64,000 nucleotides of DNA from the NCBI GenBank assembly GCA_963707795.1, contig OY970174.1:1874648-1938647 (forward strand), written 5' to 3'. The position numbers and the translations under genes are program-made. Below are positions 15,066 through 57,404 of the stretch, piece after piece. The first letter of the stretch is position 1; every line of letters starts with the position of its first letter. The DNA is from an uncultured Acidobacteriota bacterium (GTDB lineage Bacteria > Acidobacteriota > Vicinamibacteria > Vicinamibacterales > UBA2999). The notes under the pieces were generated by a model. It was not told the DNA's origin, searched no databases, and saw nothing but the letters and a program-made list of their open reading frames with translations.

Positions 15066-15120
15066 CGAGTCAGTTTTGATTGTAGGTGGCAAACGGGCCG
15101 GCCGGCAGTAAGCTGGCAGG

Positions 15121-15393: not shown

Positions 15394-15463
15394 CGCGCCG
15401 CGGGCTGCCGGCGCCCGGCGGCCCGCGTCCCGATACAATCGAACCAGGAGACGACGTTCATCC

Positions 15464-23055: not shown

Positions 23056-23131
23056 GGCCGGGTAGCTCAGTTGGTAGAGCATACGACTGAAAATCGTAGT
23101 GTCGACAGTTCGATTCTGTCCCCGGCCACCA
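23056..23131 (+). tRNA. tRNA-Phe (anticodon GAA)
   Basis: Acceptor stem GGCCGGG/CCCGGCC. D-arm TAGCTCAGTTGGTAGAGC. Anticodon arm TACGA-CTGAAAA-TCGTA. T-arm with GTTCGATTC. Discriminator A and an encoded CCA. Confidence 0.95.
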
Positions 23132-25740: not shown

Positions 25741-26953
25741 CGAACGAATTCAGCCGGTACTGGCCGAGAAAGTCGCGCTCCGAGCCGCCAATCACGATGA
25801 ACCGCATGGCCACTCGCCAGTTCCGGCCGATGGCGCGTGAGTATTCAGCCTTGCCGAGGATCCCTTCGCCGTTGTGTCGAGCGATGGCTTCGACCACGAA
25901 GCTTCTGGTCGTGTCGGCGCTATACGACACGCGAGCCAGGATGGTGCCGGCTAGCCCTCGATCCGGCGCAAACGTGAAATCGAGCCGGTCGACGTTCACC
26001 CATTCCCCCGAGTAGCCGCCGATGAAGAGCCACTCGCGCCACTGCCGCTCGGCTTGAAACACGTAAAGGACGTAGTCGTCGGTGTCGTGGTCCAGCGACT
26101 CGAATCCCGCGGCCTCCGCCCGGATGGCAAACCACGGGAGGGGCACGAGCACATCCGTGCCGTAGGTCCGGATGGCCGGGTACCAGCGGCGGACATCGAC
26201 GGTCGCGGTCTGAGGGTTCGGGGCGGCGTCGAACAACGGCTGATGGTTGAAACCCTGAAAGAACGAGAATGAGTACTCGACGGTTCGTCCAGTATGGTTC
26301 CAGCGAATGCCGTACTGCGGCTTGTCTGGAAAGACCGCACCCGCATGCCTCAGTGGGAGCGGTGAAGTGGCGGCGGCGAAACCAGCCCACCGCTGCGTGA
26401 ACAGCGGCAGCCGACTGGGTGTCAGACGGGGGGCCACGACAAACTCGACGTTGTCGGATGGCCCCGCCACCGTCAGTCGCGCCGCGGTCACCGCCAGGAC
26501 CTCGTTGTCGACGACGATCAGGTAGTCGCGCGGCGTGAAGCGATCGGTGGGGTTCACCATGTCGGTCTTGCCCCAGCGGACGAACTGCTTTCCGATCTCG
26601 AGCGTCACGGGACCAGCCGAGAAGAGGGCACTCAGGCGGCGAACGGCCAGCGGCGGGCGCTGCAGTGTCCGGTCCGAGTAAATGCCGTCGACGCTTCGAG
26701 CCACCCGGTCGTGGGAATCGGCGCGCACGTCGAATGACGCCGCAAGCAGAAACAGCCGCGAGAACTCGACCGTCGGATCGAAGCGGACGAGCGCCTCGCC
26801 GACCACTGTCTTCGAATCGTTTGCCACCTTCTGCGGGTAGACTTCGAAAGACGCTTCCGCGGAGCCACGGTACTTGAGCGTCTGCGCCAGGGCGTCCTGA
26901 GAGACGACCACAGCCAACGCGGCGACGAATACGACGCTCCGCGCGGCGCGCAT
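25712..26953 (-). CDS. Outer-membrane beta-barrel protein (DUF1302-like)
   Basis: Signal peptide MRAARSVVFVAALAVVVSQDALAQ. It has a GKQFVRWGKTDMVNPTD motif, alternating beta pattern throughout, and ends ...ILRFSF*. Confidence 0.7.
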   Translation of the reverse strand: MRAARSVVFVAALAVVVSQDALAQTLKYRGSAEASFEVYPQKVANDSKTVVGEALVRFDPTVEFSRLFLLAASFDVRADSHDRVARSVDGIYSDRTLQRPPLAVRRLSALFSAGPVTLEIGKQFVRWGKTDMVNPTDRFTPRDYLIVVDNEVLAVTAARLTVAGPSDNVEFVVAPRLTPSRLPLFTQRWAGFAAATSPLPLRHAGAVFPDKPQYGIRWNHTGRTVEYSFSFFQGFNHQPLFDAAPNPQTATVDVRRWYPAIRTYGTDVLVPLPWFAIRAEAAGFESLDHDTDDYVLYVFQAERQWREWLFIGGYSGEWVNVDRLDFTFAPDRGLAGTILARVSYSADTTRSFVVEAIARHNGEGILGKAEYSRAIGRNWRVAMRFIVIGGSERDFLGQYRLNSFGEPILRFSF

Positions 26954-26954
26954 G

Positions 26955-27710
26955 TCAGCCCCGTCGCAAGGCAGGAATCGTGAATTGGTCGGGTGTGAGG
27001 GGCACGTTGTACTTCACCGAGTCCAACTTCAGGATCGTGCGACTCTTGCGCCCCACATCCTCGACTTCGAGGACCTGTGCGGTCCAGACACCTTGGATGT
27101 TTTTCATCTCCTGGTATTTCAGCCGCCGAATCAGCTGGCTCTGATCGAAGTTTTCGATCTGCGCATAGGTGTGGGTGCTCTTTCTGATCCAGTACGTGGA
27201 GTTGGTGTACTGAGACTTCTTGCCGGCCGTCGGCGTCGCCCCAATCTTCCAGCACGGCTCACCGTCCAATGTCTCCTCACCCAGCAGCGAATACTGGTAA
27301 TGATCGAGGTCGCGTTCCTCGAGGTCTTCAAAGCTGAAGTCGGTCCCAAAGAAGCGCGTCCGTCGGTCTTGTGAGGCGACGCGACGCTCGCGGTTGATCG
27401 CGGGCGTCCACATCCACTGATCGGACGATCGGTCCGGATAGTTGACGACGAGTACGGCGACGCCCTTGACCTCCGCAGGCGTCGTGAAGCGGATGACCAC
27501 CTTGCTCTCGCCGAACGACCCGATCCGCGTGTAGCTCCACCGCTTCTCGGACGTTCTGCCATTCGCGTCGATGACCTGCAGCACGCCCTCATACTGCTGC
27601 GAACTGACGCTTGCCCGTTTCTGCACTTCAGCCACGATCGCTCGCGGCTCCTGTGCGGAGAGCAAGACTCCTCCCGTCACCAGGAGGATGGGACACAGGA
27701 GGTTATTCAT
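26955..27710 (-). CDS. LolA-like outer-membrane lipoprotein-sorting protein
   Basis: A signal peptide, then the pattern typical of LolA_like proteins encoded next to FtsX permeases (RWSYTRIGSFGESKVVIRFTTPAEVKGVAVLV...FFGTDFSFEDL). It overlaps the permease stop by 8 nt. Confidence 0.7.
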   Translation of the reverse strand: MNNLLCPILLVTGGVLLSAQEPRAIVAEVQKRASVSSQQYEGVLQVIDANGRTSEKRWSYTRIGSFGESKVVIRFTTPAEVKGVAVLVVNYPDRSSDQWMWTPAINRERRVASQDRRTRFFGTDFSFEDLEERDLDHYQYSLLGEETLDGEPCWKIGATPTAGKKSQYTNSTYWIRKSTHTYAQIENFDQSQLIRRLKYQEMKNIQGVWTAQVLEVEDVGRKSRTILKLDSVKYNVPLTPDQFTIPALRRG

Positions 27711-30255
27711 ATTCGAGCGCCTCCACCAGGGATCCTCGCACGGCAGCCTCGGCGGGCACCGACGCACCCACCAACGCCGTGAGCAGGATGATCGGAAACA
27801 GTGCCGCCGCCATGCCGTAGGGATACAGGTAATCGAGTCGCAGCCCGGGGAAGTCGCGTGCTGTCATCTCGAGCTGATAATAGAGCTGGATGCCGCCGAG
27901 CACCAGCCCGAGAATCACACTGACGACACCGACGCCGAGGGCCTCCATCCAAATCGTCCACCGCACCTGGTTGGGGAACCCGCCAAGAGCACGCAGCACG
28001 CCCAACTCACGACGACGGTCCGTGATCGAGACGGTCAGCGAATTGACGATGCCGAGGACCGCGACCAGAATCGCGATGGCGACTTGCGCCCAGGTCATGC
28101 GAAACCACTGGTCGGTCAGTCCGGACACGTAGTCTCGCACCTCGCCGTTGGTCAGCACGAAGATTCGGCGGTTGTCTCCGAACTTCGAGAGAATCCCGGC
28201 CTTGACCGTCTCGGACGGCACGCCGGGATCGAGATAGACACGAAAGAGATCAACGCTGTCGTCGCGCCAGTGGCGTTCGAACAGCTGCCGATCGATCATC
28301 AATGAGCCTTGCTGATCGGAGTATTCCTTGACCACACCCACCATCGGCAGCGGTAGCACGCCCCCCGGAAACGGAAGCTCAATCGTGTCACCCAGTCGCA
28401 CGTGCCGCATCGAGGCGAACCCTTCTGACGCGATGACGCCGCGCCCCTCTGCCGCGAGTCGGAACATTTCTTCCCGATCTCCTTGCACTGCGCGCAGCGG
28501 AGAGCGGCGCATGGTCTTTTCCACTTCCAAGACGATCAGCAGTACCGGTTCGGTCCCGAGTCGTATCCGCGGGTGGCGGAGCCGCTGCACCTCCGCGATG
28601 CCGTCGACCGACTCGAGCTCAGAGGTCATCGAGCCGGGAAACCGGTAGGTTCTTTCAGTGAGGGTCGGGGAGCTGGTGACGAAAAGGTCAGGGTTGAGAA
28701 AGGAGTTCACCCAATCCGTAACCTGGCCGTAGAGACCGCGCGCGATCCCGGCCAGGCCGATGACGAGCGCCAGCGAAAGCATGAGAGCTGCGACCGTCGA
28801 CGAGGTACGCTTCGGCGCTGCAATGAGGCTGTCGGCGGCCAGCGTGCCTTCAACTGGCCGCAGCCACCGGAGCACGGGGCGGATCGCGCGCGTGAGCCAC
28901 AGCGCGAGCCCGGGAGTGAGCAGCAGCGCCGCTATCATGACGCACACGTATCCCACATAGAACATCTGCAGTGAATCGGTCGCCACGAGCAACAGAGTGC
29001 CAGTGGCCCCGAGTGCGGCGGCGACAAGGGTGCGGCCGCGGGTCGAGCCTTCGGCGAGCACTTGATTGCGGCCCTTCTGGAGCGCCTTGACCGGATCGAC
29101 GCGCGCCGCGTTCCGTGCGGGAAGGACCGCAGCCAGCCCACTGGTCAACACGCCAAGCGCCACGGCAAGCACGGCGACGCTGGGCGTGAAGCCGACGTTC
29201 ACGTCCGCCGCCCCGACGCCATACGCGTCCTGCATCAAGCCCGCCGCGGTTCGTGCGACCACTTCTGCCGCGGAGTGCCCGACCACCACGCCAAGGGTTG
29301 ATCCCGCGAGCGCGAGGAGCAGGCTTTCGCCAAGAAAGAGCATCCAGATCTGAGGGCGCGTGGCCCCCAGCGCCCGTAAGAGGCCGATCTCGCCGCGTCG
29401 CTGCGTCACGGCGATCGAGAACGCGTTGTAAATGATGAACATGCCCACCAGCAGCGCAAAACCGCTGGAGAAATTGAGCATGAATTGGTAGATCCGCAGC
29501 ATGGACTGGAAGTTCTGTCCGCGTGTCGCGGGCGGCTGTATTTCGTATCCCACGCCGAGCAGCGATTGCAACGCTGCCTGCGCCTGAGTGACGTCGACGC
29601 CCGGCGCCAGCGCGAGGTCGATGCGGTCGAATTTCCGGCCACGGCCGAACACGAACTGGGCGGCGTAGATATCCATCACGGCGAGATTGCCGCCGAAGGC
29701 GCTGGTCAGTCCGCTCGACCGCAGAATCCCGCGCACCGTGAAGTTCTTGGGGCCGTCGATCGTGTTGAGCGGAACCCGGCTGTTGAGATCGAAGCCGTTC
29801 CGCGCCGCGAACTCGGCGCTGATCATGATTGAATCCGGCTGCGCCAGGAAGACCAGCGGGTCGTCGAGGATCGCCTCGTCGCCGGCTGCCAGGTCGTACT
29901 CGCGGAGGCTTCGATCGCCTGTCATGTCCACGCCGAGGACGAGGAGGTTGCCTTGGCCGACGATCCCCGTGCCAACAACCGCTTCGATGACCGGTGCCGC
30001 CACGCGTACGTCGGCGAGCGACTGCACGCGCTCGAGCACGTCCTCGTCGAAGCCCGCGTCGCCGGCGGTCACCTGCAGCTCGGTTGCGCCGGCAATGCGG
30101 TTGATCGTCTCCTGAAAGGTCCCAAACACGGCCGCGTTGGCCGTGTGCATCGCCATGAACACCGCAATGCCAATGACGATGGCCAGCAGCGTCAGAACGG
30201 TGCGCCCCGCATGCTTGCGCGTGTACGGCCAGCTGATCAGCCGAAACAGCATCAT
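27703..30255 (-). CDS. ABC transporter permease with duplicated FtsX/MacB-type domains (850 aa)
   Basis: Two repeats of TM1, a large periplasmic domain and three TM helices, each containing the FtsX signature (RRGEIGLLRALGA... and RRRELGVLRALGG...). Confidence 0.85.
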   Translation of the reverse strand: MMLFRLISWPYTRKHAGRTVLTLLAIVIGIAVFMAMHTANAAVFGTFQETINRIAGATELQVTAGDAGFDEDVLERVQSLADVRVAAPVIEAVVGTGIVGQGNLLVLGVDMTGDRSLREYDLAAGDEAILDDPLVFLAQPDSIMISAEFAARNGFDLNSRVPLNTIDGPKNFTVRGILRSSGLTSAFGGNLAVMDIYAAQFVFGRGRKFDRIDLALAPGVDVTQAQAALQSLLGVGYEIQPPATRGQNFQSMLRIYQFMLNFSSGFALLVGMFIIYNAFSIAVTQRRGEIGLLRALGATRPQIWMLFLGESLLLALAGSTLGVVVGHSAAEVVARTAAGLMQDAYGVGAADVNVGFTPSVAVLAVALGVLTSGLAAVLPARNAARVDPVKALQKGRNQVLAEGSTRGRTLVAAALGATGTLLLVATDSLQMFYVGYVCVMIAALLLTPGLALWLTRAIRPVLRWLRPVEGTLAADSLIAAPKRTSSTVAALMLSLALVIGLAGIARGLYGQVTDWVNSFLNPDLFVTSSPTLTERTYRFPGSMTSELESVDGIAEVQRLRHPRIRLGTEPVLLIVLEVEKTMRRSPLRAVQGDREEMFRLAAEGRGVIASEGFASMRHVRLGDTIELPFPGGVLPLPMVGVVKEYSDQQGSLMIDRQLFERHWRDDSVDLFRVYLDPGVPSETVKAGILSKFGDNRRIFVLTNGEVRDYVSGLTDQWFRMTWAQVAIAILVAVLGIVNSLTVSITDRRRELGVLRALGGFPNQVRWTIWMEALGVGVVSVILGLVLGGIQLYYQLEMTARDFPGLRLDYLYPYGMAAALFPIILLTALVGASVPAEAAVRGSLVEALEYE

Positions 30256-30926
30256 TGGCGCACGTCCTCCACGATTCGAGCGTCGCGCATCCGGACGACC
30301 CGTGGACAGCTGCCGGCCACAGAGAGATCGTGTGTGACGATGACGACCGTCGCGCCCAGCCTCGAATTGAGGTCGCGCATGAGTGCAAGGATCTCTGCAC
30401 CGGTCTTGGTGTCGAGATTCCCGGTGGGCTCGTCACCGAGGAGGATGGGTGGATAAATCGAGAGCGCCCTCGCGATCGCGACCCGCTGCCGTTCGCCCCC
30501 GGAGAGCTCGTCCGGCAAATGCTCCATGCGCTTGTCCAATCCGACCACTGCGAGCAGTTCGCGCGCGCGCTCGTCCGTCTTCTTGCGGGGCCACCGGCGC
30601 AAGTGCAGCGGCAGCGCGACATTTTCGATCGCCGAGAGACTGGGAAGCAGATTGAAGAACTGAAAGATGAACCCGATCTTGTCGCGCCGGATGCCTGTTC
30701 GTTCGCGATCGGTCAGCGGGGACAATGCCTGGCCGTCGATCCTGACTTCGCCGGTCGTGGGCTGATCGAGCGCCCCGATCAGGTTGAGCAGAGTCGACTT
30801 GCCCGATCCCGAGGGGCCGATGATGGCCACCATTTCACCTTTCCCGATCTCGAGGTCGACACCTTCGAGCGCAGTCACCTGGCGGCGTCCGGCGAAACGC
30901 TTCGAGACACCCTGCAGCTGAATCAT
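30252..30926 (-). CDS. ABC transporter ATP-binding protein (MacB/LolD type)
   Basis: Walker A GPSGSGKSTLL, Q-loop, signature LSGGERQRVAIARAL and Walker B ILLGDEPTGNLD. The stop overlaps the permease start. Confidence 0.9.
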   Translation of the reverse strand: MIQLQGVSKRFAGRRQVTALEGVDLEIGKGEMVAIIGPSGSGKSTLLNLIGALDQPTTGEVRIDGQALSPLTDRERTGIRRDKIGFIFQFFNLLPSLSAIENVALPLHLRRWPRKKTDERARELLAVVGLDKRMEHLPDELSGGERQRVAIARALSIYPPILLGDEPTGNLDTKTGAEILALMRDLNSRLGATVVIVTHDLSVAGSCPRVVRMRDARIVEDVRQ

Positions 30927-31176
30927 GAAGACGCATCCATGAGAGCGGTCATTGGCATGACGACCACCAGCACCAGCAGGTGCGTAGACGATGAGGCTGA
31001 GCGGCCCGACCACTCAACGCGATCAATAGCGGGGCGGCACCGCTCATCCCCGGGAAAACTCGGCGTGTCGCCGTTTGACCCCGTGCTGCAAAGGAGGCGG
31101 CAGCGTATCACTCTTCAAGACCACGCCGCTGCAATTTGCCCGACCTCCGGTCGGTCGCCCTCAACCGAAAGCCAGA

Positions 31177-31199
31177 CGTGCGGTGCTATAATCCGCACG
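31177..31199 (+). promoter_or_regulatory. Extended -10 promoter (TGCTATAAT) bracketed by a perfect 7-bp inverted repeat CGTGCGG/CCGCACG (candidate operator)
   Basis: CGTGCGG at 31177-31183, TGcTATAAT at 31184-31192, CCGCACG at 31193-31199. It lies ~105 nt upstream of ATG 31298 (RBS GGGAGG). Confidence 0.45.
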
Positions 31200-31297
31200 A
31201 ATCTGCCCCATTTCGCATCGGCTCGACGTTGACCTCGAGGCTTGTCGCGCGGAAAAGTCGCGATGCGTACGAGCCAGAGCCCCTTGGGAGGATCGAG

Positions 31298-33355
31298 ATG
31301 GCGTTCGGCTGGCGTGTGCTGCCCTCCCCGCGACGCCGCAGCATGGGGCGGAGTCGCTGGGCCGTCGTCATTCTTATGGCGGGCCTCATGGCCGGGGCGC
31401 TGCTGCTCAGAACGGCCGGAGGATTGGGCGGCGACCAGCCGCTGCATCTGTCCCACGCACCGCCCGTGGGGATGGCGTTCGACCCGGCGACGGAGCCGAT
31501 AGAACCGTCGTCCTCCGACGGCGTCGACTCCCGCTATGCCTACGACCCTGCGCTCACTCCCCTCGAAAACCACGGTCGGGACACGTGGTACTTCTGGACG
31601 GGTGGCGGTGAGCACTTTTGGCGCAAGGTCGCAATCATCACCGAGGGCATCACCGATCTGGTGCAGTTTGTGGATTCTCGGCGACGTGACAGCCGGTTCC
31701 GCACCTTAGGGGTCATCAACGATCCGCAGTGCACGAGGGCGACCAGGGCCGACGAATACGGTTTGTGGTTCGACGAGTGCGCCCCGCAAGACATCCCGGG
31801 GATCACGGGGATGCCGACAGGCATCGTGGGTCTGCGAAAGTTTCCGAATCCCAAGTTCGACAAAGCGACGTGGTCCACGGACCGTTACCGCACGAATCCT
31901 CGGGACGTCGAGCCGCCATACCTGGTCGGGATGACATGTGGGTTGTGCCACATCGGATTCAATCCACTGGACCCGCCGGCGGACCCCGAGCACCCCACGT
32001 GGCGTAATTTGGCGCCCGGGATCGGCAATCAATACTTCGATGAAGGCAAGCTGTTCTCGCTGAAGATGTCTCCCGACGATTTCCGCTGGCATGTCGCGAA
32101 TCGTCAGCCAGCAGGGACGTCGGACACATCCCGTTTCGCCACGGATCACATCAACAACTCGAACGCCATCAATCCGATCTTTCTCCTCGGGCACCGGCCT
32201 GCGCATCAAGAGACGATGAACGATGGCACCAGCCGCTCCGTGCACCACATCCTCAAAGACGGCGCCGACTCGATTGGCACGGCGGGTGCCTCGCTGCGCG
32301 TGTTTGTCAACATCGGCATGTGCTCGGACTACTGGCTGACGCTGCACGATCCCATTCTCGGCATGCGATCGCAGCAACCATTTCGCATCGAGCGAGCGAA
32401 GAAGGAATGCCCGGAGTGGTTGCCCACCGAGTCGCGCATGCCCGCTGTCGAGGCGTTCTTGAAGACGATCGGACCGATGCGCTTGAAGGACGCGGCAGGC
32501 GGCGCGCAGTATCTGTCGCAGGATTCCGCGGTCCTGCATCGAGGGAAAGTCGTCTTCGCCGAGCGATGCGCGACGTGCCATTCCAGCAAACAACCGCCGG
32601 CTGAACTGGCCGGCGATCCGCAACAAGCGACCCAATGGCTGCGTGAGGCCGTCGTCAAAGACGACTTTCTCGAGATGAACTACTTGTCCGACGACCGGCG
32701 CTACTCCGTGCTCGAGATCGGCACCAACATGGCCCGGGCGCTGGCGTCGAACGCCGTACGCGGCCACGTGTGGGAAGAGTTCTCATCCGAGAGCTACAAG
32801 CAGATGCCGACGGTCGGTCAGGCGCAGATGCTGTTCAACCCGCTCAACCCGGGCAGCCCCTTGAGCTTCGACTTGGGTGGTGGTGGCCGCGGCTACTATC
32901 GCACGCCCAGCCTGGTCAGCATCTGGGCCAGCGCGCCGTACTTCCACAACAACGCGTTGGGGATCTTCACGAAGGACCCGTCAGTCGCCAGCCGGATGCT
33001 GGCGTTTGAGGATGGGATGCGAAAGCTGCTCTGGCCACTCGATCGCCTGGGTGTGCAGTCGATTCCCGTGACGACGACCGACAGCATCATCAGGCTTTCC
33101 AACGGCATCGAGATGCCGGTCCCCATGGGCACGCCGATTAATCTGATCGCCCGCGTCGATCCCACCGCCGTGCCCAATCTGGGTCCACGGCTCACGGGGT
33201 GGCTCAGGTGGATGGTTGGGAACCGCTTTCTGTTGAACAATCTGCTCTCCTACAACCTCGCTCCTGACTTCGTCGAGGACCGGGGACACACCTTCGGAGC
33301 GGACCTCTCTGATGCCGACAAGCGCGCGCTCATCGAGTTTGTCAAAACGTTCTGA
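31298..33355 (+). CDS. Di-heme cytochrome c-family protein of unknown function (685 aa)
   Basis: N-terminal TM/signal WAVVILMAGLMAGALLL. Two CxxCH motifs ~290 aa apart (CGLCH and CATCH). There is no other family signature I can name. Confidence 0.7.
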   Translation: MAFGWRVLPSPRRRSMGRSRWAVVILMAGLMAGALLLRTAGGLGGDQPLHLSHAPPVGMAFDPATEPIEPSSSDGVDSRYAYDPALTPLENHGRDTWYFWTGGGEHFWRKVAIITEGITDLVQFVDSRRRDSRFRTLGVINDPQCTRATRADEYGLWFDECAPQDIPGITGMPTGIVGLRKFPNPKFDKATWSTDRYRTNPRDVEPPYLVGMTCGLCHIGFNPLDPPADPEHPTWRNLAPGIGNQYFDEGKLFSLKMSPDDFRWHVANRQPAGTSDTSRFATDHINNSNAINPIFLLGHRPAHQETMNDGTSRSVHHILKDGADSIGTAGASLRVFVNIGMCSDYWLTLHDPILGMRSQQPFRIERAKKECPEWLPTESRMPAVEAFLKTIGPMRLKDAAGGAQYLSQDSAVLHRGKVVFAERCATCHSSKQPPAELAGDPQQATQWLREAVVKDDFLEMNYLSDDRRYSVLEIGTNMARALASNAVRGHVWEEFSSESYKQMPTVGQAQMLFNPLNPGSPLSFDLGGGGRGYYRTPSLVSIWASAPYFHNNALGIFTKDPSVASRMLAFEDGMRKLLWPLDRLGVQSIPVTTTDSIIRLSNGIEMPVPMGTPINLIARVDPTAVPNLGPRLTGWLRWMVGNRFLLNNLLSYNLAPDFVEDRGHTFGADLSDADKRALIEFVKTF

Positions 33356-33366
33356 TCTGACTGCTG

Positions 33367-34704
33367 ATGGCAGGCGACATCCTCTTCGAGCCGCTGACGT
33401 TTCGAAATCTGACGGTCAAGAACCGCGTCTTCCGGTCGAACATCGCCGGTCGATTCGACAACTACGACGGCTCCGGGAGTCGGACGCGGATCAACTGGGA
33501 GTTGAAGTTCGCTCGGGGCGGCGTGGGCGCCATCGTGTCGTCGTTCGTGCCGGTCCAGATGCGAGGGCGGATCTTGCCCAATTACGCGACCATCGACCGC
33601 GACGACCGGATCCCGTTCTGGCGGGAGCTCGCCAGGAGGGTCCACGAGTTCGACTGCAAGTACATCGTGCAACTGAGTCATGGTGGGCGTCAGCGGGACA
33701 TTGCCCCGCTCGAAGCACCGAAGGGCCTCAGTTCGACCGACAAATGCGAACCGCTCCACGGGTTTCCGTGCGAGCGGATGACCGTGGATCAGATCCAGGA
33801 GACCGTGCAGGCATTTGCAGACGGCGCCTGGCGCGCGCGTGAGGCCGGAGTCGACGGTGTCGAGTTGCACGGCGCCAACGGCTATCTCATCACGCAGTTT
33901 CTCAGCTCGGCGATCAACGATCGAAAGGATCAGTACGGCGGCACTCTCGAGAACCGCGCCCGGTTCGTGCTGGAGATTGTTCGCGCGATCCGCAAGAAGG
34001 TCGGCGACGATTTCCACCTCCAGGTGAAGATCAGCACCACCGAGCACCACAACGCCATGCGCTGGTGGGAGTCCAGAGGCAACACGATCGCGGACTCCGT
34101 CGAGGTGTGTCGCTGGCTGGAGGAGGCGGGCGTCGATGCGATCCATGTGTCGACCGGCAGCTCGTTCCCGCATCCACGCAATCCAGCCGGCGATCTGCCG
34201 ATTGCGGACTTTCTCGGCGCCTATCCGCTGCTGCTGGCGAGCGGAAGCCGAACCTTCATGAATTACCTGCTGATCCGATCGATGTTCACGAGGAAGCTCT
34301 TTTACTGGCTATGGACCAGAGCTGGCCGGGGGACGATCGAAGGCGCGAACCTTGCCGACGCGCACGCGATCAAGCGCACCGTGAAAACGCCTGTTCTGTG
34401 CACGGGAGGATTCCAGACGGCGTCTGTCATCCGAAGGGCGCTGAGCGAGGGGTTATGTGATGGCGTGACGATTGCGCGGCCGCTGGTCGCGAACAACGAT
34501 CTGGTCCATCTGTTCGCTCAGGGGTTGGATCGCCCGCCCACACCGTGCAGCTATTGCAACAAGTGCCTGGTGAACGCCATCGTCAGCCCGCTGGGATGCT
34601 ACGACCAGACGCGTTTTGCCTCACGCGAGGCGATGGTGGAGCAGATCTTCTCGGTGTTCGCACCCGCATCCTTCAGTGAGGCGACGCCTGAGGTGAACGG
34701 ATGA
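33367..34704 (+). CDS. NADH:flavin oxidoreductase (Old Yellow Enzyme family) with a C-terminal Cys motif
   Basis: LTVKNRVFRSNIAG, QLSHGGRQ, GVELHGANGYLITQFLSSAINDRKDQYGG, and C-terminal CSYCNKCL. Confidence 0.85.
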   Translation: MAGDILFEPLTFRNLTVKNRVFRSNIAGRFDNYDGSGSRTRINWELKFARGGVGAIVSSFVPVQMRGRILPNYATIDRDDRIPFWRELARRVHEFDCKYIVQLSHGGRQRDIAPLEAPKGLSSTDKCEPLHGFPCERMTVDQIQETVQAFADGAWRAREAGVDGVELHGANGYLITQFLSSAINDRKDQYGGTLENRARFVLEIVRAIRKKVGDDFHLQVKISTTEHHNAMRWWESRGNTIADSVEVCRWLEEAGVDAIHVSTGSSFPHPRNPAGDLPIADFLGAYPLLLASGSRTFMNYLLIRSMFTRKLFYWLWTRAGRGTIEGANLADAHAIKRTVKTPVLCTGGFQTASVIRRALSEGLCDGVTIARPLVANNDLVHLFAQGLDRPPTPCSYCNKCLVNAIVSPLGCYDQTRFASREAMVEQIFSVFAPASFSEATPEVNG

Positions 34705-35097
34705 CCACGAGCCGCACCCGGAGATCGGCGCCGGGCCCCATGGGACGTCCGTGGCCCGGGCGAACCCGATTGCTCAGGAATCGCCCTGAACGTCCGGATC
34801 GAGATACGACCTCAAGCTGACGCGGCAGTACGTGACCATGACCGACGAACCACTCGGCAAGGCAATGACCGGGGCGTGGCAGCGCCGACGCCAGTTGACG
34901 GCAGTCGATCAGTAGGCCACGCGATGTCCGACAACGAATTGTCCGTCATTTGTCAGTCCCGCTCGCACACGCGTCGTGCGAAGCAGGTCTCGAGCCGTAA
35001 GCGTCCCTGTCACGCAGACCATTCCACCGGAGACTGTTCCACTAACGGAGGAGCACTCTACCTTTGGGTCTGGCAACAGCGGGAGCTTGCGCAGGCG

Positions 35098-36012
35098 TTA
35101 TCGCGCGGAATAGCCGTAGACGCGCACCGTGTTGGTTTTCCCCTTGAGCGTGCGTTCGCCGAAATCCTGCAGCGTTCCGGTCAGTTCCTGGATGTGTTCC
35201 GCGAAGTCACTGGAAAAGACCATGGACTGGTTTAGTTCCTTCGCGACGGCTTCCAGGCGAAACACGGTGTTTACCGCGTCGCCAATGATCGTCGCATCGC
35301 GATCGGCGGCGACCCCGACATTGCTGCAAGTGACCTGTCCGTAGTGCAGGGCGAGCGCGACGTGAAACGATTCGCCCGTCGGCCAGGCGCGGGCCGCGGC
35401 AAGGGCGAGCATTCTTCGCGCGCTCTCAAGCGCCCCGGCGCAATCGATCGGGGCATCGTGCGCGGCGCCCCAATACGCGAGCATGGCGTCGCCGATGAAT
35501 TTATCGATCGTCCCTCCGGCCCGGGACACGATATTGCCGGTTTCGCGAAACCATGCCCCGAGGATTTGGGCGACATCGCCGGGCGGATTGCGTTCCGACA
35601 TGGCGCTGAAGCCGCGGATATCGCAGACGAGCAGCGCGACGGCGCGCGACTCGATGACCTGATTGGCCACCGTTCCCGCGACCGTCAGTTGCAGGTGTTG
35701 CTGGGTCGTGTCAATGATTTCCTCGCTGAACGTGAGGATGTTGTCCGCAATCCGAATCCGGGCGCCATCGAGCAACGTGATCGGCACGATGACCCGTTGA
35801 TCGTTGACGAAGGTGCCGTTGCGGGAGCCGAGATCGATGATCTGGTATTGATATCCGTTGTAGCAGCGGACGACGGCGTGCTGCCGGGACACGAGCGGGC
35901 TCGAGTTCAGACACACCGTGTTTTCACGGGTGCGCCCGATCGTGGCGGTATTGCCGATCGGCACTTCAAAGGGTTCTGCTTCCGCAGGTTGGACGAAAAG
36001 CTTGGCTCCCAT
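35098..36012 (-). CDS. FHA-domain / class III adenylate-guanylate cyclase fusion
   Basis: FHA: IGRTRENTVCLNSSPLVSRQHAVV...DLGSRNGTFVNDQRV. Cyclase: LVCDIRGFSAMSE, KFIGDAMLAYWG and IGDAVNTVFRLE. The start is taken at MGAKLF. Confidence 0.85.
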   Translation of the reverse strand: MGAKLFVQPAEAEPFEVPIGNTATIGRTRENTVCLNSSPLVSRQHAVVRCYNGYQYQIIDLGSRNGTFVNDQRVIVPITLLDGARIRIADNILTFSEEIIDTTQQHLQLTVAGTVANQVIESRAVALLVCDIRGFSAMSERNPPGDVAQILGAWFRETGNIVSRAGGTIDKFIGDAMLAYWGAAHDAPIDCAGALESARRMLALAAARAWPTGESFHVALALHYGQVTCSNVGVAADRDATIIGDAVNTVFRLEAVAKELNQSMVFSSDFAEHIQELTGTLQDFGERTLKGKTNTVRVYGYSAR

Positions 36013-36156
36013 GCAGACGGCTGAGGCGTTGCAGATTGCTAGAGGCGGCGAACAACTGCAACGGTTTGGCGCCGATAGTTTTCCGGCCGTCCATTTTCCA
36101 TGTCCGACTCGCTCCGATTCGCTCACTACCAAGTGCTGCCCCGCGGGCCGCGCGCG

Positions 36157-39100
36157 CTACGGGTCGAACGGCAACCCCTGCGGGTCGAAGGTGTGCAGGT
36201 CCGTGGTCCTCGTGAGCTGGAGCTCGATGCGGCCGCGCAGCTGGATGTTGGGCGGCGACACCGTGAACTCGGGGCGAAACACGATCCGCTCGGGGTAGAT
36301 CACGACGCGCATCTGGAGCGCCTTGGCGAGTTCTTCGACGAAGGTCTCCGGGGGAGGCTCGGTGACGAGGGCGAGCCACACTTCGCGCAGCGCCTGGGCG
36401 CCGCCCTGGTCGCGAAAATCCTTGTTGCGCTTTCGCACACCCCGCACGAGCTCGGCCAACGGCCCGCCACCGCTCGACAGGCTCCCCACCTCTCGCAGGG
36501 CCGCGACGAACGCGGCACCCAATGTGGGCGACGAGGGATCCCCGGTGCCAGCGCCCGGTTCGCTCGCAACCGCTCCTGCACGCGCCTCCCCGCTGAAGGA
36601 CAGCTCGTCGGTGGCCGACAGGTAGCCGAAGAAATTGAAGCGGCGTGCCGGCTCGGCGAGGATCTTGAGGAACTGTCCGACGGTCGCAACCTCGGCGTCC
36701 GCCCGTGGACTGCGGCCGCCCGCGCTGCGGATCGAAATCGCCCGGAAGTCGACGGACGAGGGGTTCCACTGCTGGCTCTGCAGCGCCGCCACTTCCTCGG
36801 CGATGGTGTCCAGGTCCGAGCCTCTCACCACGCGTGAATAGAAGAAAATCTCGTCGACGAACTGCGCCGGCGCATTGCCGCCGCCTCCACCGCCTCCCGG
36901 TCCCGGCTGCCGAGTGGCCAGCACCAGGTCCCCTGAGGACATGCCGAGGCTGCCGAACACCGCGCGCCGGAACGCCAGATCGCCGCTGCTGCCGCCGCCC
37001 GGCGATCCGCCACCGCTGCGCGGCACGGCCTCCCCGCCGCCGCTGCCGCTGCCTCCTCCCGATTCGCCGATCCCGCCGCCGATGCCTCCCGAGCTGCCGT
37101 CGCTGCCGGCCGTCCCTTCGAGGCCGGTCGCCGTCTGGTCGCGTTTGTCCGCGGTATTGAGCAGCGCGCCCATCTCCGAGATGTTCTTCGGGGTGCCCTG
37201 CAACGCGCCGGGGTTGCCCATCGCCGCCATCGCCAACTGCGCGGCGATCCGCTGCTGCTCGATGTCTTTCTGTGCGGCGACCGCCAGGTTCGCTGCCGCC
37301 AGGCGCCCTGCGTCCGCCGCGGCGCTGGTGGCGTCGCCGGCCGTGCCGCGCGCCAAACCGATCGTCGCCGCCAGCCCCGCCATGTCCCGGAACATGCCTC
37401 CGTTCTGCAAGGCCCCGAGCATCGGGCCGAGGCCGGTCGGGTCGGGCAGCGACGTGGGATTGACGATGTTGAGGACCGGTTGGCCGAGTTGCCCGGGCGT
37501 GACGTCCACCGGCTGCGCGCGCGACTGCATGTTGATGGCGGCGATCTCCGGCGGCTGCAGGGGAATCGGCGAGTCCTGCCAGTTCCAGAATCGCGTCGCA
37601 TCGAGCTTTTCCGCGGCGTTGGAGCGGCCCAGTACGGCCTCGGCAAAGACACCGCCGGTGGGGACGGGTACTAGCTGCTCCTGCTCGGTCTCGCGCCCGA
37701 AGGTGAGGCCGCAATCCCGCAGCCACCCATGCCACGCGCGTCGGGCCGCGGCCTCCGGCGTATCGGCGTCCTCGTCGTCGCGCCTGACGCCGAGCCCGGC
37801 GCGGGCCACGAACCCCGGCATGCGGAACACGAGATAGTTCCCCGCAATCTGGATGGGCCGCGGGTCGATGAGGTCGGCGACCGGCCGGCTCTCGAACGAG
37901 AATCGCGACAGCAGCAGCGCGACGGTGGAGGCATCGAACGAGCGCCAGATGGCCTGGTTGTAGTGAAGCTTGTTGGCCCGCAGATGTTCGACCAGCTCGG
38001 GTCCCGCCTCGCTGCCGTCGATGCGGGCGACGCTGGCGGTGCTGCTGGCGCCGACGTCGACCGGCAGCGTGACGGGAAACAGCGAGCCGCGGTAGCTGAC
38101 CTCGAGGGTCAGTCGTCCGCGCGCGCGACCGCTGCCGGCGCCGGTGGTCATCAGCAGCTCCAGCACGTCCTCCAGCGGCAGCGAGCCGGGCACGCGGAAT
38201 CCGATCGACGTGCGCTGAAATGCGACCTCCGGCTGTCCGAGCTGGCGCCGGGCGTTGATACCGACGACCGGCGGCCCCTCGCCGTCGAGTGCGACGCTCA
38301 CACCCTGCAGCTCGGCTTCCCGCGGCAGCAGCAACTCCGTGCGGCCTGGGCGCAGCACGTTTGCCGCCGTGAGGCGGCTGACGCGCCGCACTTCCTCCAG
38401 ATCCCAGGCGGCCTCTTGCGGCTCGCTCGGCGCCGCGGGCGTCGGCGGCGTCTCGGGCGTGGGGGGCGTCTCCGGCGTGGGCGCGGGAGCTGGCGGGGTC
38501 GCCCCCTCCACCCGCGCGAGCATCGCCAGTCGTGCGCGCGGCCGCGCCAGCACGTCGGCCAGCAGCGGCCGCATCGGCTGCGCCGACTGCAGGCGCACCA
38601 TGGCGAAATCCGAGGTCAACAGCTCGAGCGCGCGGCGCGTGAGCGCCGCCGCGGCGAGCGCCCCCTGGTAGCGGGTAATCGTGCGCTCGTCGAAATCCAC
38701 CAGCTTCATCGGCACGAACAGGCAGCGCTCCACTTCGTGCAGGCCGACGAGCACCCGGTAGACCTCGACCACCTCGTAGTACTGCACGGTCAGGGCGTGC
38801 ATGTGGTTGTAGTTGGCGAGAATGCGCGTCGACACGCTCTCGTGTTCCGTCTCCGAGATCTCCTTGACCAGCGAGGCGCGCCGGTTGCGCACCGACGAAG
38901 CGGCCTGCTGCGTGGCGTCCATCACCTGCTGGCTCATCGACGCCGAGAGATCGCGCGAGCCGACCGAGGTCGAGAAGCTGTCGGCCGACGTCGTGGTCGT
39001 GCCGCTGGAGCCGCTGGCGCCGAGCGACACGGGACCCATGCTGAACCCGAACCCACCGCCGCTCTGGCTCGTCTTCGCCGTGCTTTCGGTGTGCGAAAAT

Positions 39101-39969
39101 CCCGACTGCACTTCGTTCGCCACGGCCTGCTGGACTTCGCTGACCGCGCGGTTGTGGCTCGTCTGCTGGGTCAGCGCCTCGGTCTCGCTGATGGCCTCGG
39201 TGCCGGCCGCGCGCGTCTGCCGTGACCAGTCCACGACGGCAATGCGCGTGCTCTCGCCCGGCGCCAGCGCGACCGAGTGCAGGAGATTGCCGAGCGTGAT
39301 GCCGTGCGCATACCAGGACTGCTGGAAGCTGAGACGCGCCCCGACGGCCGGCGCGCTGAACCCGAAGTCGGCGTCCAGCGTCGGGGCAATGTCGACCGGC
39401 CCTGCCGTCGTCAGCTCAGTGGTCGCCGTGACAGCGACGTGATCCATCACGATCGTGGAGTAGTAGCGCCGCTCGGTGGGGAACTCCCCCATTCGCGGCA
39501 CCAGCTCGCTGGCCTCGTCGGCCGCCGTGTCGCTCGGCCCGCCCGCGGCGGCGAGGACGCGCCGGGCCGAACGGTACGGGAACCAGCGTCCGAGATCGCC
39601 TACCGTCGCGAGCTGCAGGGCGGATTTCAACTGCGTCGCCTGCGGCAGGGTCAGGCTGCGGATCGCGGACAGGTCGGCGCTGGCAAAGTCGGCGAGCCGC
39701 GGCGACTCGCCGCTCGCCGCGGCCCCGCCCGGCACGGTGTCGAAGCGGGACAGGTCGGCGCGCCCGCGGCCCTGCAGTGCCTCGCCAATCTCGGCCGCCA
39801 GGGCAAAGAGCGGCGAGGTCGCCAGATCGATGACGGTGACGAGGCCGATGCCCGCCAGCGCATCGCGGACCACGTCGTTGACCCCAAGGAGAACGGTCGT
39901 CGGCGCGCGCAGGGCGGCCAGCGCGTCGAGATTGGCATCCGCGTGCTTCAGCCCGTCCTGGTAGTTCAT
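36157..39969 (-). CDS. Large (1270 aa) multidomain protein of unknown function
   Basis: An uninterrupted ORF with AGGAGG 6 nt upstream of the ATG. It has no signal peptide, TM helix or Walker A. It contains distinctive motifs, listed in the findings. Confidence 0.8.
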   Translation of the reverse strand: MNYQDGLKHADANLDALAALRAPTTVLLGVNDVVRDALAGIGLVTVIDLATSPLFALAAEIGEALQGRGRADLSRFDTVPGGAAASGESPRLADFASADLSAIRSLTLPQATQLKSALQLATVGDLGRWFPYRSARRVLAAAGGPSDTAADEASELVPRMGEFPTERRYYSTIVMDHVAVTATTELTTAGPVDIAPTLDADFGFSAPAVGARLSFQQSWYAHGITLGNLLHSVALAPGESTRIAVVDWSRQTRAAGTEAISETEALTQQTSHNRAVSEVQQAVANEVQSGFSHTESTAKTSQSGGGFGFSMGPVSLGASGSSGTTTTSADSFSTSVGSRDLSASMSQQVMDATQQAASSVRNRRASLVKEISETEHESVSTRILANYNHMHALTVQYYEVVEVYRVLVGLHEVERCLFVPMKLVDFDERTITRYQGALAAAALTRRALELLTSDFAMVRLQSAQPMRPLLADVLARPRARLAMLARVEGATPPAPAPTPETPPTPETPPTPAAPSEPQEAAWDLEEVRRVSRLTAANVLRPGRTELLLPREAELQGVSVALDGEGPPVVGINARRQLGQPEVAFQRTSIGFRVPGSLPLEDVLELLMTTGAGSGRARGRLTLEVSYRGSLFPVTLPVDVGASSTASVARIDGSEAGPELVEHLRANKLHYNQAIWRSFDASTVALLLSRFSFESRPVADLIDPRPIQIAGNYLVFRMPGFVARAGLGVRRDDEDADTPEAAARRAWHGWLRDCGLTFGRETEQEQLVPVPTGGVFAEAVLGRSNAAEKLDATRFWNWQDSPIPLQPPEIAAINMQSRAQPVDVTPGQLGQPVLNIVNPTSLPDPTGLGPMLGALQNGGMFRDMAGLAATIGLARGTAGDATSAAADAGRLAAANLAVAAQKDIEQQRIAAQLAMAAMGNPGALQGTPKNISEMGALLNTADKRDQTATGLEGTAGSDGSSGGIGGGIGESGGGSGSGGGEAVPRSGGGSPGGGSSGDLAFRRAVFGSLGMSSGDLVLATRQPGPGGGGGGGNAPAQFVDEIFFYSRVVRGSDLDTIAEEVAALQSQQWNPSSVDFRAISIRSAGGRSPRADAEVATVGQFLKILAEPARRFNFFGYLSATDELSFSGEARAGAVASEPGAGTGDPSSPTLGAAFVAALREVGSLSSGGGPLAELVRGVRKRNKDFRDQGGAQALREVWLALVTEPPPETFVEELAKALQMRVVIYPERIVFRPEFTVSPPNIQLRGRIELQLTRTTDLHTFDPQGLPFDP
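38419..38505 (-). repeat. In-frame Pro/Thr-rich tandem repeat inside the 1270-aa gene (TPPAPAPTPETPPTPETPPTPAAP)
   Basis: The plus strand reads ggcgtctcgggcgtggggggcgtctccggcgtgggcgcggg, i.e. imperfect ~15-nt tandem units. Confidence 0.7.
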
Positions 39970-40093
39970 ACCAGCCTCCTGACGAACCGGGTCACGGCGG
40001 CCCGGAGCCCGAGCCGGCGTGAGGTGGCGCGAATCCTACCACGGGCGGAACCCGGTTGGCGCCCCGCCGATCGCGACCCAGGCGGAGGTTGAT

Positions 40094-41164
40094 TCAGCGG
40101 TGAAGCGCGCCGCCGGCCGCAATCTCGGCCGGCCGCCCGGAGAACGCCGGTGCGTCGAGCTCCGCCGCCGACGGCACGACGATGCCGCCCTGGCGGTCGC
40201 CTGCGTTCGGCCACAACCGCAGATGCAGGTCGATGAACGTGTCCACGAGGTCCGGGTCGCACCAGCCGCCGCGCGCCTCGCTGCGCATGATCTGATACGC
40301 GGTCACCGTGGGCAGCGCCGCGCGGTACGGCCGGTCGGTGGTCAGCGCGTCGAACACGTCCACCACCGCCACGATCTGCGCCAGCAGCGGGATTGCCGCG
40401 CCGGCGAGCCGGTCGGGATAGCCGCGCCCATCGAGCCGCTCGTGATGATGCCGGACGATGGGACGTACGCGATCGAGGGAGCGGACGGTGGCGCACAACT
40501 GGTCGCCGATGACCGGGTGGCGCTGCATGATCTCGTATTCCTTCGCCGTCAGCTTGCCCTTCTTCAGCAGCACGCGGTCGGGCACCGCGATCTTGCCGAC
40601 GTCGTGCAGGAAGGCGCCGCGGTACAACGCATCGAGGTCGGCCTGATCGAGATCGAGGCGGCGGCCGAGCGCGGTGGCGTAATCGGCCAGGCGCTCGCAG
40701 TGCCCCTCGGTGCTCGGATCGCGCGCCTCGATGACGCGCCCCAAGGTCAGGAACAGCGACGCCGCCGATTCGAGATCGTCGGTCAACCGCTTCAGCCGCA
40801 TCAGCGAGCGCACGCGCGTGTACAGCTCCTTCGGGTCGACCGGTTTGCTCAGGAAGTCGTCGGCGCCCGCTTCCAGGCCGGCGAGCATGGTCTGCCGCTC
40901 CTGCGAGGCGCTGATCAGCACGACGGGAATGAGGCAGGTGTCGGCGTCCTGCTTCACGCGCTCGCAGACCTCGAGGCCGGAGATGCCGGGCATCATCACG
41001 TCGAGCAGGATGAGATCGGGGCGCTCCGCGGCGACCAGGCTGAGCGCCTCGCTGCCGTTGGCCGCCATGAGCACGTGATAGTTGGCGCCTTCGAGCAGCT
41101 GCGCCAGCCCGTGCAGATTCGGCTCGTAGTCATCCACAACCAGGATTTTCCCGGTTTTGCTCAT
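40094..41164 (-). CDS. Response regulator receiver + HD-GYP domain protein (RpfG-type c-di-GMP phosphodiesterase)
   Basis: REC: KILVVDDYEPN...DLILLDVMMPGISG...KP. HD-GYP: HCERLADYA, FLHDVGKI and HHERLDGRGYPD. Confidence 0.88.
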   Translation of the reverse strand: MSKTGKILVVDDYEPNLHGLAQLLEGANYHVLMAANGSEALSLVAAERPDLILLDVMMPGISGLEVCERVKQDADTCLIPVVLISASQERQTMLAGLEAGADDFLSKPVDPKELYTRVRSLMRLKRLTDDLESAASLFLTLGRVIEARDPSTEGHCERLADYATALGRRLDLDQADLDALYRGAFLHDVGKIAVPDRVLLKKGKLTAKEYEIMQRHPVIGDQLCATVRSLDRVRPIVRHHHERLDGRGYPDRLAGAAIPLLAQIVAVVDVFDALTTDRPYRAALPTVTAYQIMRSEARGGWCDPDLVDTFIDLHLRLWPNAGDRQGGIVVPSAAELDAPAFSGRPAEIAAGGALHR

Positions 41165-41400
41165 GTCGCAGTCCCTCTGATGTGGCCGAGTGGGGGCGAC
41201 CAACTGCAACCCACGGACCACGCGAAGCTCATCGGAAAAACGCGCGTCTGGCTGCCGATGCGCCGGCGGCGATCGACAGGACCGTGCGCGCGATTACAGT
41301 TCGGGCGGTCGCGCACTCGCGGCAACGCGCACCAATCCTTCGTGTCTCACACGCCTGACACTTTTGTCAGCCGCTTCGCGCCGACGGGTCCGACGAGGGA

Positions 41401-56103: not shown

Positions 56104-56110
56104 GGCGGTC

Positions 56111-57379: not shown

Positions 57380-57404
57380 CGTCGAATTATAATCCTCGGT
57401 ACCG

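Follow-up and report, generated by a model that had tools for sequence, protein, structure and literature searches.

A large unnamed protein family with a predicted giant beta-hairpin and exchangeable C-terminal domains, seen from an acidobacterial genome

Introduction

The subject of this work is a single gene in a stretch of 64,000 nucleotides (the window) from an uncultured Acidobacteriota bacterium (GenBank assembly GCA_963707795.1, contig OY970174.1, positions 1,874,648 to 1,938,647). The complete coding sequence lies at 36157..39969 on the minus strand and encodes 1270 residues followed by a stop codon; all parts of the protein described below are likewise on the minus strand and are given in window coordinates. 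An initial annotation, made from the sequence alone, had singled out this gene as an intact one that could not be placed in any family. We find that it is a real, intact and functional member of a large unnamed superfamily of stand-alone proteins of ~1,200-1,450 residues. These proteins combine a conserved core, which in the window protein comprises the first ~945 residues (the BLAST coverage of many relatives stops at about residue 945), with a Gly/Ser-rich tether and a C-terminal domain, or tail, that differs widely from one relative to another. Within the core there is a segment that we predict to form a giant beta-hairpin, and it is this segment, together with the exchangeable tails, that guides our tentative reading of what the protein may do.

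The gene and its coding strand

The coding sequence starts with ATG, and a Shine-Dalgarno sequence, AGGAGG, is located 5 nucleotides upstream at 39975..39980. The intact reading frame and the strong ribosome-binding site reported in the initial annotation both stand. The same annotation had cautioned that long antisense open reading frames (ORFs) cover the region and that the coding strand should be confirmed by homology. The GC content of the gene at codon positions 1/2/3 is 0.71/0.54/0.88, as in the real genes of the window (~70% GC), and the antisense ORFs that overlap it are without this genuine-gene pattern. Hundreds of full-length homologues match the translation of the minus strand at E = 0, and these matches settle the coding strand.

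The protein itself carries few familiar marks. Its N-terminus is not signal-peptide-like, a motif check of the whole sequence found no Walker A, and there is no convincing transmembrane helix; the most hydrophobic 19-residue segment has a value of 1.84 and is found inside the folded helix-hairpin-helix-like domain near the N-terminus. All three absences had been noted before and were upheld on re-examination.

A large family without a name

A phmmer search with the core against 1.84 billion cluster representatives, the clusters being defined at 50% identity, found 3,230 clusters at E <= 1e-3 and 1,652 at E <= 1e-30; the members listed in this search are nearly all 1,150-1,450 residues long. 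The absence of homologues would have pointed to a spurious ORF, and what was found is a very large and strongly conserved family. In a scan of 185,579 genomes, one genome per species, relatives with one of two exact heptapeptide signatures were present in 511. The hosts cover at least 11 bacterial phyla and one haloarchaeon: Acidobacteriota, Gemmatimonadota, Pseudomonadota (with many Legionella, Coxiellaceae, and Rickettsiales), Verrucomicrobiota, Myxococcota, Desulfobacterota, Actinomycetota, Bacillota, Bacteroidota, Chloroflexota, Planctomycetota, and Methylomirabilota, with the Bacillus cereus group, Streptomyces, and Pseudomonas among the further named hosts, and with the haloarchaeon Haladaptatus added by plasmid records. 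The distribution is patchy, and both diderm and monoderm bacteria are represented.

The closest relative in the species-genome scan comes from an Acidobacteriota metagenome-assembled genome (MAG) and is 69% identical to the window protein; metagenome proteins reach 75% identity. At the other end of the spectrum are distant members from Polaromonas, Nostoc, Psychrobacter, Novosphingobium, Ruegeria, and one unverified 'phage' contig (72% GC). These retain just two modules, corresponding to residues ~207-450 and ~630-930 of the window protein, with the same motifs.

The conclusion of the initial annotation that the protein fits no named family also stood up to a wider search. The whole protein has no match in Pfam, NCBIfam, PADLOC, or PHROGs; the sole match in a Pfam scan at E <= 1 is a chance one to a CEP15-like entry. 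Sequences of the Protein Data Bank (PDB) gave no match either with the single sequence (phmmer) or with a profile of 116 sequences. Structures were predicted as AlphaFold2 monomer models of the core (residues 1-950) and of the C-terminal domain (residues 1020-1270). The core model has a mean predicted local distance difference test (pLDDT) score of 69, with 512 residues at 70 or above. With this model Foldseek found nothing better than E 0.04 in PDB or BFVD, and in PDB nothing with E < 0.1, and neither sequence nor fold linked the core to a nuclease or hydrolase family. A literature search by accession, locus tag, and concept found the family undescribed, apart from a passing remark in one paper (PMC6027127). 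The family has no name, no domain model, and no structure.

A predicted giant beta-hairpin

The most unusual element of the core is found at residues 254-369 (38863..39210), where the pattern of conservation and the strand register predict a giant beta-hairpin with ~55 residues per arm. Conservation in this region alternates strictly with a period of two residues, and one face of the predicted hairpin is invariant. Over residues 254-365 the median period-2 power ratio is 7.6, compared with a median of 1.1 and a 95th percentile of 3.3 elsewhere. In the first arm it is the even positions that are conserved (E258, I260, E262, E264, L266, N268, T270, H272, R274, E278, Q280, A282, A284, E286, Q288, G290, and S292), and in the second arm the odd ones (S331, S333, S335, G337, R339, L341, A343, M345, Q347, V349, D351, T353, Q355, A357, S359, R361, R363, and A365).

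All antiparallel registers of the two arms were scored for charge and hydrophobic complementarity using the 116-sequence alignment. One register, i+j = 625, is outstanding, with a score of 10.7 against a mean of -0.7 and a standard deviation of 3.0 for the 50 others (z = 3.8). It places the turn at the invariant G312 and the near-invariant P313, and it brings together four invariant cross-strand salt bridges: E262-R363, E264-R361, R274-D351, and E286-R339. The tip of the hairpin (residues 303-323, 39001..39063) is Gly-rich and hydrophobic, with Ser/Thr tracts on both sides. It reads GGG-F-G-L/F-S-L-G-P-L/V-T-L/I-GG, and alternates F307/L309/L311 and L314/L316 on one face around G312/P313. The initial annotation had described a Ser/Thr/Gly-rich stretch bracketed by two striking motifs. 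The stretch is indeed there, at residues 317-338, but we prefer to see in it the tip of a single conserved beta-hairpin of great length.

In the AlphaFold2 model the hairpin emerges between two long strands of the body, residues 208-226 and 394-420; if extended, the predicted hairpin would by our estimate be ~150 Å long or longer. It is worth pointing out that the two most conserved segments of the protein, the hairpin and a Pro-rich segment further along the core, are the ones that the monomer model leaves unplaced, with pLDDT < 50. A low monomer score is what one would expect if such parts took their final structure only in an assembly. From the alignment we regard the predicted hairpin, with its ladder of invariant salt bridges, as an unusual and well-supported structural feature.

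The rest of the conserved core

The core begins with a helical domain (residues 1-143, 39541..39969; pLDDT 82-98) that has two helix-hairpin-helix (HhH)-like motifs at residues 27-50 and 106-129. The domain has no significant Pfam match in the window protein and aligns weakly to the HhH of DinB (E 0.9); in a distant relative from Psychrobacter there is a match to HHH_3, the ComEA-type family, with an E of 1.5e-5 that stays under the gathering score.

The hairpin belongs to a conserved module A (residues 150-487, 38509..39522), defined from the alignment and the AlphaFold2 model, which has body strands at residues 164-178, 208-226, and 394-420 and a helical sub-domain. Its first motif, SWYAHG...DWSR, spans residues 218-250. 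At the base of the hairpin lies the invariant NYNHMHA...QY.E motif (residues 385-406, 38752..38817), with the sequence ANYNHMHALTVQYYEV in the window protein. The motif faces the invariant H231, E239, R242, and W248 together with the near-invariant D247 (98%).

Module A is followed by a poorly conserved Pro/Thr-rich linker (residues 488-523, 38401..38508; repeat at residues 492-514) and by an eight-stranded beta-sandwich (residues 524-651, 38017..38400; pLDDT ~90-97) that is weakly PLAT/C2-like. The Foldseek matches of PLAT/C2 type are 1lox (prob 0.69) and 1bu8 (prob 0.41), both with E > 0.1 and both assigned to residues 524-651 from their length and type, without alignment coordinates.

The last part of the core is the conserved module B (residues 655-945, 37135..38007), an alpha/beta body that leads into a long Ala-rich helix at residues 864-916. 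Its motifs are HYNQAIWRSFD (residues 669-679), GNYLVFRMPGF (residues 710-720), and GGVFAEAVLGR...QDSPIP (residues 772-803), the last of which lies within the ultra-conserved, Pro-rich extended segment mentioned above (residues 770-870, 37360..37662; conservation 0.74-0.96). This segment reads GGVFAEAVLGRS...RFWNWQDSPIP...NPT.LPDPTG...FRDMSG, and the model leaves it unplaced over residues 781-869. Modules A and B are also the parts retained by the distant relatives, in which the HhH domain is absent.

All the motifs quoted in the initial annotation were found where it had put them, and its impression that they are family signatures is borne out: most motif residues are invariant across 116 homologues that are 42-76% identical. 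Its domain boundaries, with a core up to about residue 945, a Gly/Ser linker, and a C-terminal globular domain, were close to correct.

Tether, junction motif and swappable tails

Comparison of the tails shows that the core is followed by a Gly/Ser-rich tether (residues 946-1038, 36856..37134), which includes seven Gly at residues 1025-1031. Such a Gly-rich tether is present in 194 of 197 tails, ending at a median of ~93 residues past the core. Inside the tether there is a junction motif, LAFRRAVFGSLG... (residues 998-1016, 36922..36978), and the island AFxRA[LV][WFY]G within it (residues 998-1009 of the window protein) precedes several unrelated tails. A scan for extra copies of the junction motif, as orphan tail cassettes would have, found none.

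The tails themselves, which make up the last 200-450 residues, are strikingly diverse. A set of 199 divides into at least 40 unrelated classes, and cores that are 55-65% identical to that of the window protein already carry different tails; the tails must therefore have been exchanged by recombination. The window protein has the commonest class, shared by about half of the relatives: a C-terminal alpha/beta domain (residues 1039-1270, 36160..36855; pLDDT 93) with the conserved residues E1040, E1059, W1068, D1074, R1110, N1112, R1245, H1259, and D1262. A search with this tail alone returned just 10 fragments, all from the same family, and weak, sub-threshold matches to DUF4347 were seen in three of ten tails of the class. 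The domain resembles the caspase-like fold of legumain, CHAT, and DdvA weakly (E 0.14-0.4, TM-score ~0.27). A caspase-like (clan CD) cysteine peptidase was rejected for this tail, because no Cys is conserved in 98 tails and the fold matches are weak.

A minority of the tails have a Pfam match. The counts come from two overlapping samples, and the first two pairs may be the same proteins: HH_signal in two tails (best E 3e-54), Peptidase_M15_3 in two, Amidase_2 and Amidase_6 in one each, DUF2272 in three, Beta-lactamase2 in three tails plus weak members of a 16-member class, and OmpA, Poly_export, Collagen, and Big_1 in one each. DUF2272 and Amidase_6 have been grouped with the NlpC/P60-CHAP wall amidases (PMC10318531). 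Judged by these sequence matches, the tails that can be named are overwhelmingly peptidoglycan hydrolases or binders, with the M15/Hedgehog-N, Amidase_2, Amidase_6, DUF2272, beta-lactamase-like, and OmpA tails counted as such. The Hedgehog-N tails are those of a Paenibacillaceae MAG (L052:8701-9471) and of Micromonospora sp. HK10 (L079:8770-9492), and the zinc-site motif H.EGRA.D...H.H is intact in both of these Hedgehog-N/DD-peptidase tails. Four further tail classes were compared with PDB and gave either nothing or spurious matches of their Gly/Ser tether to the (G4S)n linkers of single-chain antibody fragments (scFv). With the tails of loci L039 and L058, such tether matches to engineered scFv linkers went down to an E of 2e-4.

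Six loci, which come from different phyla, have a conserved acidic ORF of ~144 residues directly downstream of the family gene (L035:9733-10167, L055:7979-8413, L059:5485-5976, L061:4107-4541, L068:9806-10240, and L078:5237-5722). In two of them, L059 and L078, it is placed between two tandem full-length paralogues. The ORF has no signal peptide, and neither it nor the partner tails have a Pfam match. For this one sub-group it may serve as an inhibitor, an immunity protein, or a chaperone.

Genomic context

In the window the gene is flanked, on the same strand, by a gene for a REC + HD-GYP protein (40094-41221), of the cyclic di-GMP phosphodiesterase type, and by an FHA + nucleotide-cyclase gene (35098-36132), which is the next gene downstream. 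The initial annotation had proposed to test whether the two are conserved neighbours, and they are not: the arrangement was seen in no other locus examined. When all flanking ORFs of 85 loci were compared with one another, the most widespread neighbour family, a generic response-regulator receiver domain, occurred in 7 loci, and the flanking pair is taken as incidental because no neighbour family recurs more widely. As partners the two were rejected, since what they gave was only generic receiver-domain matches in 7 of 96 loci, at varying positions. Pfam annotation of the neighbours likewise showed nothing in common among six homologue contexts, nor in three more. With no partner gene conserved, we take the protein to act alone. 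There was no secretion-system neighbour in the loci compared and no Pfam trafficking domain in the protein scan; nor did a general downstream immunity gene recur in the 85 loci, the 144-residue ORF being limited to its sub-group of six.

Some relatives are found among genes of defence type or mobile genes. The Streptomyces context has HEPN_AbiV, PycTM, and a DUF4011 helicase; that of the Polaromonas plasmid has DUF262, PIN, TIR, and a type I restriction-modification system; that of Haladaptatus has PIN and Fic; and a Peptidase_U49 (Lit-type) gene is near the Pseudomonas member. Such neighbours occur in ~4 of 15 annotated contexts, and many of the others consist of housekeeping genes. Membership in a known anti-phage defence system is not indicated, as PADLOC gave no match and the location in defence islands is inconsistent.

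Viruses contributed next to nothing. There were 0 relatives in 2.9 million IMG/VR contigs, and one match in 50,697 phage records, an unverified and unannotated entry labelled 'Bacteriophage sp.' (GenBank MT835996, 72% GC) that is probably not a phage. The member in this record (L011:322-4701) is a distant one of 1459 residues, from a human faecal sample, with a tail that looks CHAP/DUF2272-like by eye. No phage genes adjoin the family gene in ~100 loci, and its position is syntenic across Legionella species.

A few observations on the surroundings are recorded here for their own sake. On plasmid pLA5 of Novosphingobium pentaromativorans a gene for a neprosin-family prolyl endopeptidase (L012:3760-5013) stands 19 bp upstream of a distant member; the pair, seen once, recalls the protease + pore-former pairs of bacterial gasdermin systems. 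In the window, a tRNA-Phe gene (23056-23131, plus strand) is followed by a block of lower GC (23400-36150; 0.62-0.65 against ~0.70 elsewhere) with genes for a MacB/FtsX-ABC transporter, a cytochrome-c-like protein, an OYE-type oxidoreductase, and the FHA-cyclase. The boundary of this block, which may be a genomic island integrated at tRNA-Phe, coincides exactly with the 3' end of the target gene. Elsewhere in the window, same-strand ORFs with coding-type GC at the third codon position overlap in different frames at 25712-30432 (25712-27013 / 26955-27863 / 27703-30432), at 53531-57409 (53531-55864 / 55507-56178 / 56111-57409), and at 14490-15768. These runs are consistent with frameshifts, either in pseudogenes or from assembly errors, and so agree with the remark of the initial annotation that reading frames are broken elsewhere in the window and the target gene is intact.

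Comparison with known systems

The beta-barrel pore-forming toxins (beta-PFTs), such as anthrax protective antigen (PA)/binary-toxin B and the aerolysin-ETX/MTX2 group, offer the closest parallel to the core. Like them, the window protein is soluble and without a transmembrane helix, and has a long amphipathic, Ser/Thr/Gly-rich hairpin between strands of its body; a separate variable domain could give specificity in both. The stems of PA and aerolysin have alternating hydrophobic residues at the tip with Ser/Thr tracts alongside, as does the predicted hairpin, and the amphipathic, alternating, Gly/Ser/Thr-rich hairpin by which beta-PFTs are known is present in our protein. The PA stem, with ~38 residues per arm, is shorter than the ~55 predicted here. 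The differences are equally clear, for the window protein has no sequence or fold match to these toxins, no signal peptide, a much larger core with a second ultra-conserved module, and a 'cargo' that is covalently tethered.

The arrangement of the whole protein recalls the polymorphic toxins (Rhs, CdiA, LXG, and MafB, among others; Zhang et al. 2012, PMC3482391). Here too the N-terminal body is conserved and the C-termini, of many unrelated kinds, are swapped. The junction motif can be likened to VENN or DPxGL, some loci have tandem paralogues, and one sub-group has a small conserved downstream ORF. Unlike the polymorphic toxins, the family has no trafficking domain, no secretion-system neighbour, and no signal peptide, and an immunity gene is unseen in most loci. 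While the tails of polymorphic toxins are usually nucleases or deaminases, the identifiable ones in this family are almost only peptidoglycan-active. By analogy with these two groups, we think it possible, at somewhat less than even chances, that the protein acts in the manner of a beta-PFT through its hairpin and in that of a polymorphic toxin through its conserved body, junction motif, and variable C-termini; by the comparisons made here it belongs to neither group.

The likeness to holin + endolysin cassettes and to bacteriocins of the colicin/pesticin type is one of functional analogy: these systems also join a membrane lesion to a wall hydrolase, and colicins, too, have no signal peptide. 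In contrast to them, the window protein is one polypeptide of unrelated sequence that is not phage-borne, has monoderm, diderm, and archaeal hosts in its family, and is without a lysis or immunity partner.

The one trace of the family found in the literature concerns the bacterial Hedgehog (bacHh) domains. According to Roelink 2018 (PMC6027127), these form the C-terminal ends of larger proteins, and the N-terminal portions of such proteins are found joined to other Zn peptidases as well. This remark matches the present family, two relatives of which end in Hedgehog-N, and from these two it would follow that at least some 'bacterial Hedgehog' domains are warheads of the family. The paper leaves the N-terminal core undescribed and unnamed, and the window protein itself has a different tail.

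Proposed function and alternatives

What could such a protein do? The reading we favour, tentatively and at something short of an even chance, is that of an oligomerising membrane perforator with a tethered wall-active domain. The protein would be synthesised as a soluble cytoplasmic monomer, in which the hairpin and the second ultra-conserved segment are either disordered or packed away. Upon a trigger it would oligomerise, and by analogy with the beta-PFTs the hairpins would assemble into a long beta-barrel with the tip entering the lipid bilayer; the beta-sandwich may help in binding the membrane. The tethered C-terminal domain could then reach the cell wall and either attack it or hold on to it. 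The whole would be a one-gene, envelope-breaching lytic device used in biological conflict. A target common to all cells, i.e., the lipid membrane, fits the family because its hosts span diderms, monoderms, and a haloarchaeon.

Several observations speak against a membrane perforator. The hydrophobic part of the tip is short, with ~5 residues per arm, and salt bridges and hydrophobic pairs occur together on the conserved face of the hairpin, which is no simple lumen-versus-lipid pattern. None of the beta-pore-forming profiles (Aerolysin, ETX_MTX2, Binary_toxB/PA, Leukocidin, MACPF/CDC, and Gasdermin) is matched in Pfam at E <= 1, and Foldseek comparison with the PDB pore structures of LukGH, pneumolysin, and latrotoxin (4tw1, 5ly6, and 9goa) gave prob <= 0.10, with the model at pLDDT < 50 across residues 229-393, the region decisive for this comparison. 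Alternatively, the His/Glu/Asp cluster that is invariant at the hairpin base may be a catalytic metal site. Pfam matches are missing from most tail classes, and no activity can be named for the class of the window protein. Nothing accounts for the route to any wall, since a signal peptide, a known export partner, and a general immunity gene are all lacking. If the pore sits in the inner membrane of the producer itself, it is not obvious what so long a stem would be for.

As for the direction of action, two roles seem to us about equally probable: the producer may be lysed from within, in altruistic suicide or for release, or other bacteria may be killed after release. A weapon is favoured by the tails of antibacterial-effector type, the rapid swapping of tails, the tandem paralogues in two loci, the small downstream ORF in six, and the presence of the family in a haloarchaeon, a group not known to have peptidoglycan. 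Action from within is favoured because a signal peptide, a secretion partner, and a general immunity gene are all lacking, and because monoderm, diderm, and archaeal hosts are found alike. A bolder version of the perforator, which we consider unlikely, would have it as a secretion-system-independent, single-polypeptide machine for breaching envelopes in both Bacteria and Archaea, with a ~150 Å stem that represents a new class of beta-barrel former and a tethered hydrolase, the bacterial Hedgehog-N domains among them, delivered through or alongside the pore.

The alternative that survives best, though we hold it to be distinctly unlikely, is an envelope-spanning or surface structure. The core would form a homo-oligomeric spike, fibre, or conduit in which the hairpin is a structural beta-ribbon and the HhH pair holds DNA, with the tail opening the peptidoglycan locally or anchoring in it (cf. 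VirB1, FlgJ, and the phage tail lysins); the protein would be a one-protein device for the passage of DNA or other macromolecules. Conservation of the tandem HhH-like domain among close members of the family counts for such a structure, together with the ComEA-type match in the distant relative; the Pro-rich extended segment also resembles an inter-subunit arm, and trans-envelope machines typically have dedicated wall hydrolases. On the other hand, the HhH domain is missing from the more distant relatives, the protein has neither transmembrane helix nor signal peptide, and there is no conserved ATPase or partner gene. The extreme diversity of the tails, swapped even among close cores, suits conflict better than housekeeping.

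A cytoplasmic enzyme or sensor-effector is in our view quite improbable. Here H231, E239, D247, H389-M390-H391, Y397, and E399 would make up a metal-dependent active site, the HhH pair would bind nucleic acid, as in a defence effector of nuclease type, and the tail would be a sensor or localisation module. The HxH motif and the invariant acidic residues at the hairpin base agree with this, as do the HhH-like domain and the defence-type genes around the relatives in Streptomyces, on the Polaromonas plasmid, and in Pseudomonas. It has to contend with a core that matches no nuclease or hydrolase by sequence or fold, with the empty PADLOC result, and with the many housekeeping contexts; it leaves a 110-residue period-2 hairpin with a Gly-rich hydrophobic tip unexplained, and the identifiable tails act on peptidoglycan, outside the cytoplasm.

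A structural remnant of a phage or mobile element in the chromosome, such as a tail lysin or an ejection protein, is brought to mind by the one distant relative labelled 'phage' and by phage ejection proteins, which the combination of a channel-like part, a wall hydrolase, and a DNA-binding motif recalls, but it is scarcely credible given the IMG/VR and phage-record searches, on which a phage origin was rejected, the absence of PHROGs matches and of adjoining phage genes, and the Legionella synteny.

Significance

More than 3,000 clusters of proteins of 1,200-1,450 residues, from most bacterial phyla and haloarchaea, have so far gone unannotated, and recognising them shows where in genomes at least some of the puzzling Hedgehog-N domains of bacteria belong. 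Should the mechanism proposed above prove wrong, a hairpin of ~55 + 55 residues with an invariant salt-bridge ladder, and long invariant segments that a monomer model cannot place, would still be unusual elements for a protein to have. What may be new here, and we put this as a tentative suggestion drawn from analogy, is the logic of a pore-former or of a polymorphic toxin carried on an unrelated scaffold. If the membrane perforator is the right reading, the family would represent a new, self-contained way to breach cell envelopes and a scaffold for exchanging wall-degrading enzymes, with relevance to microbial conflict, lysis biology, and the sourcing of lytic enzymes. If, beyond that, it were a single-polypeptide machine, these proteins would make up a new class of lytic weapon or suicide device, very widespread and so far overlooked by annotation.

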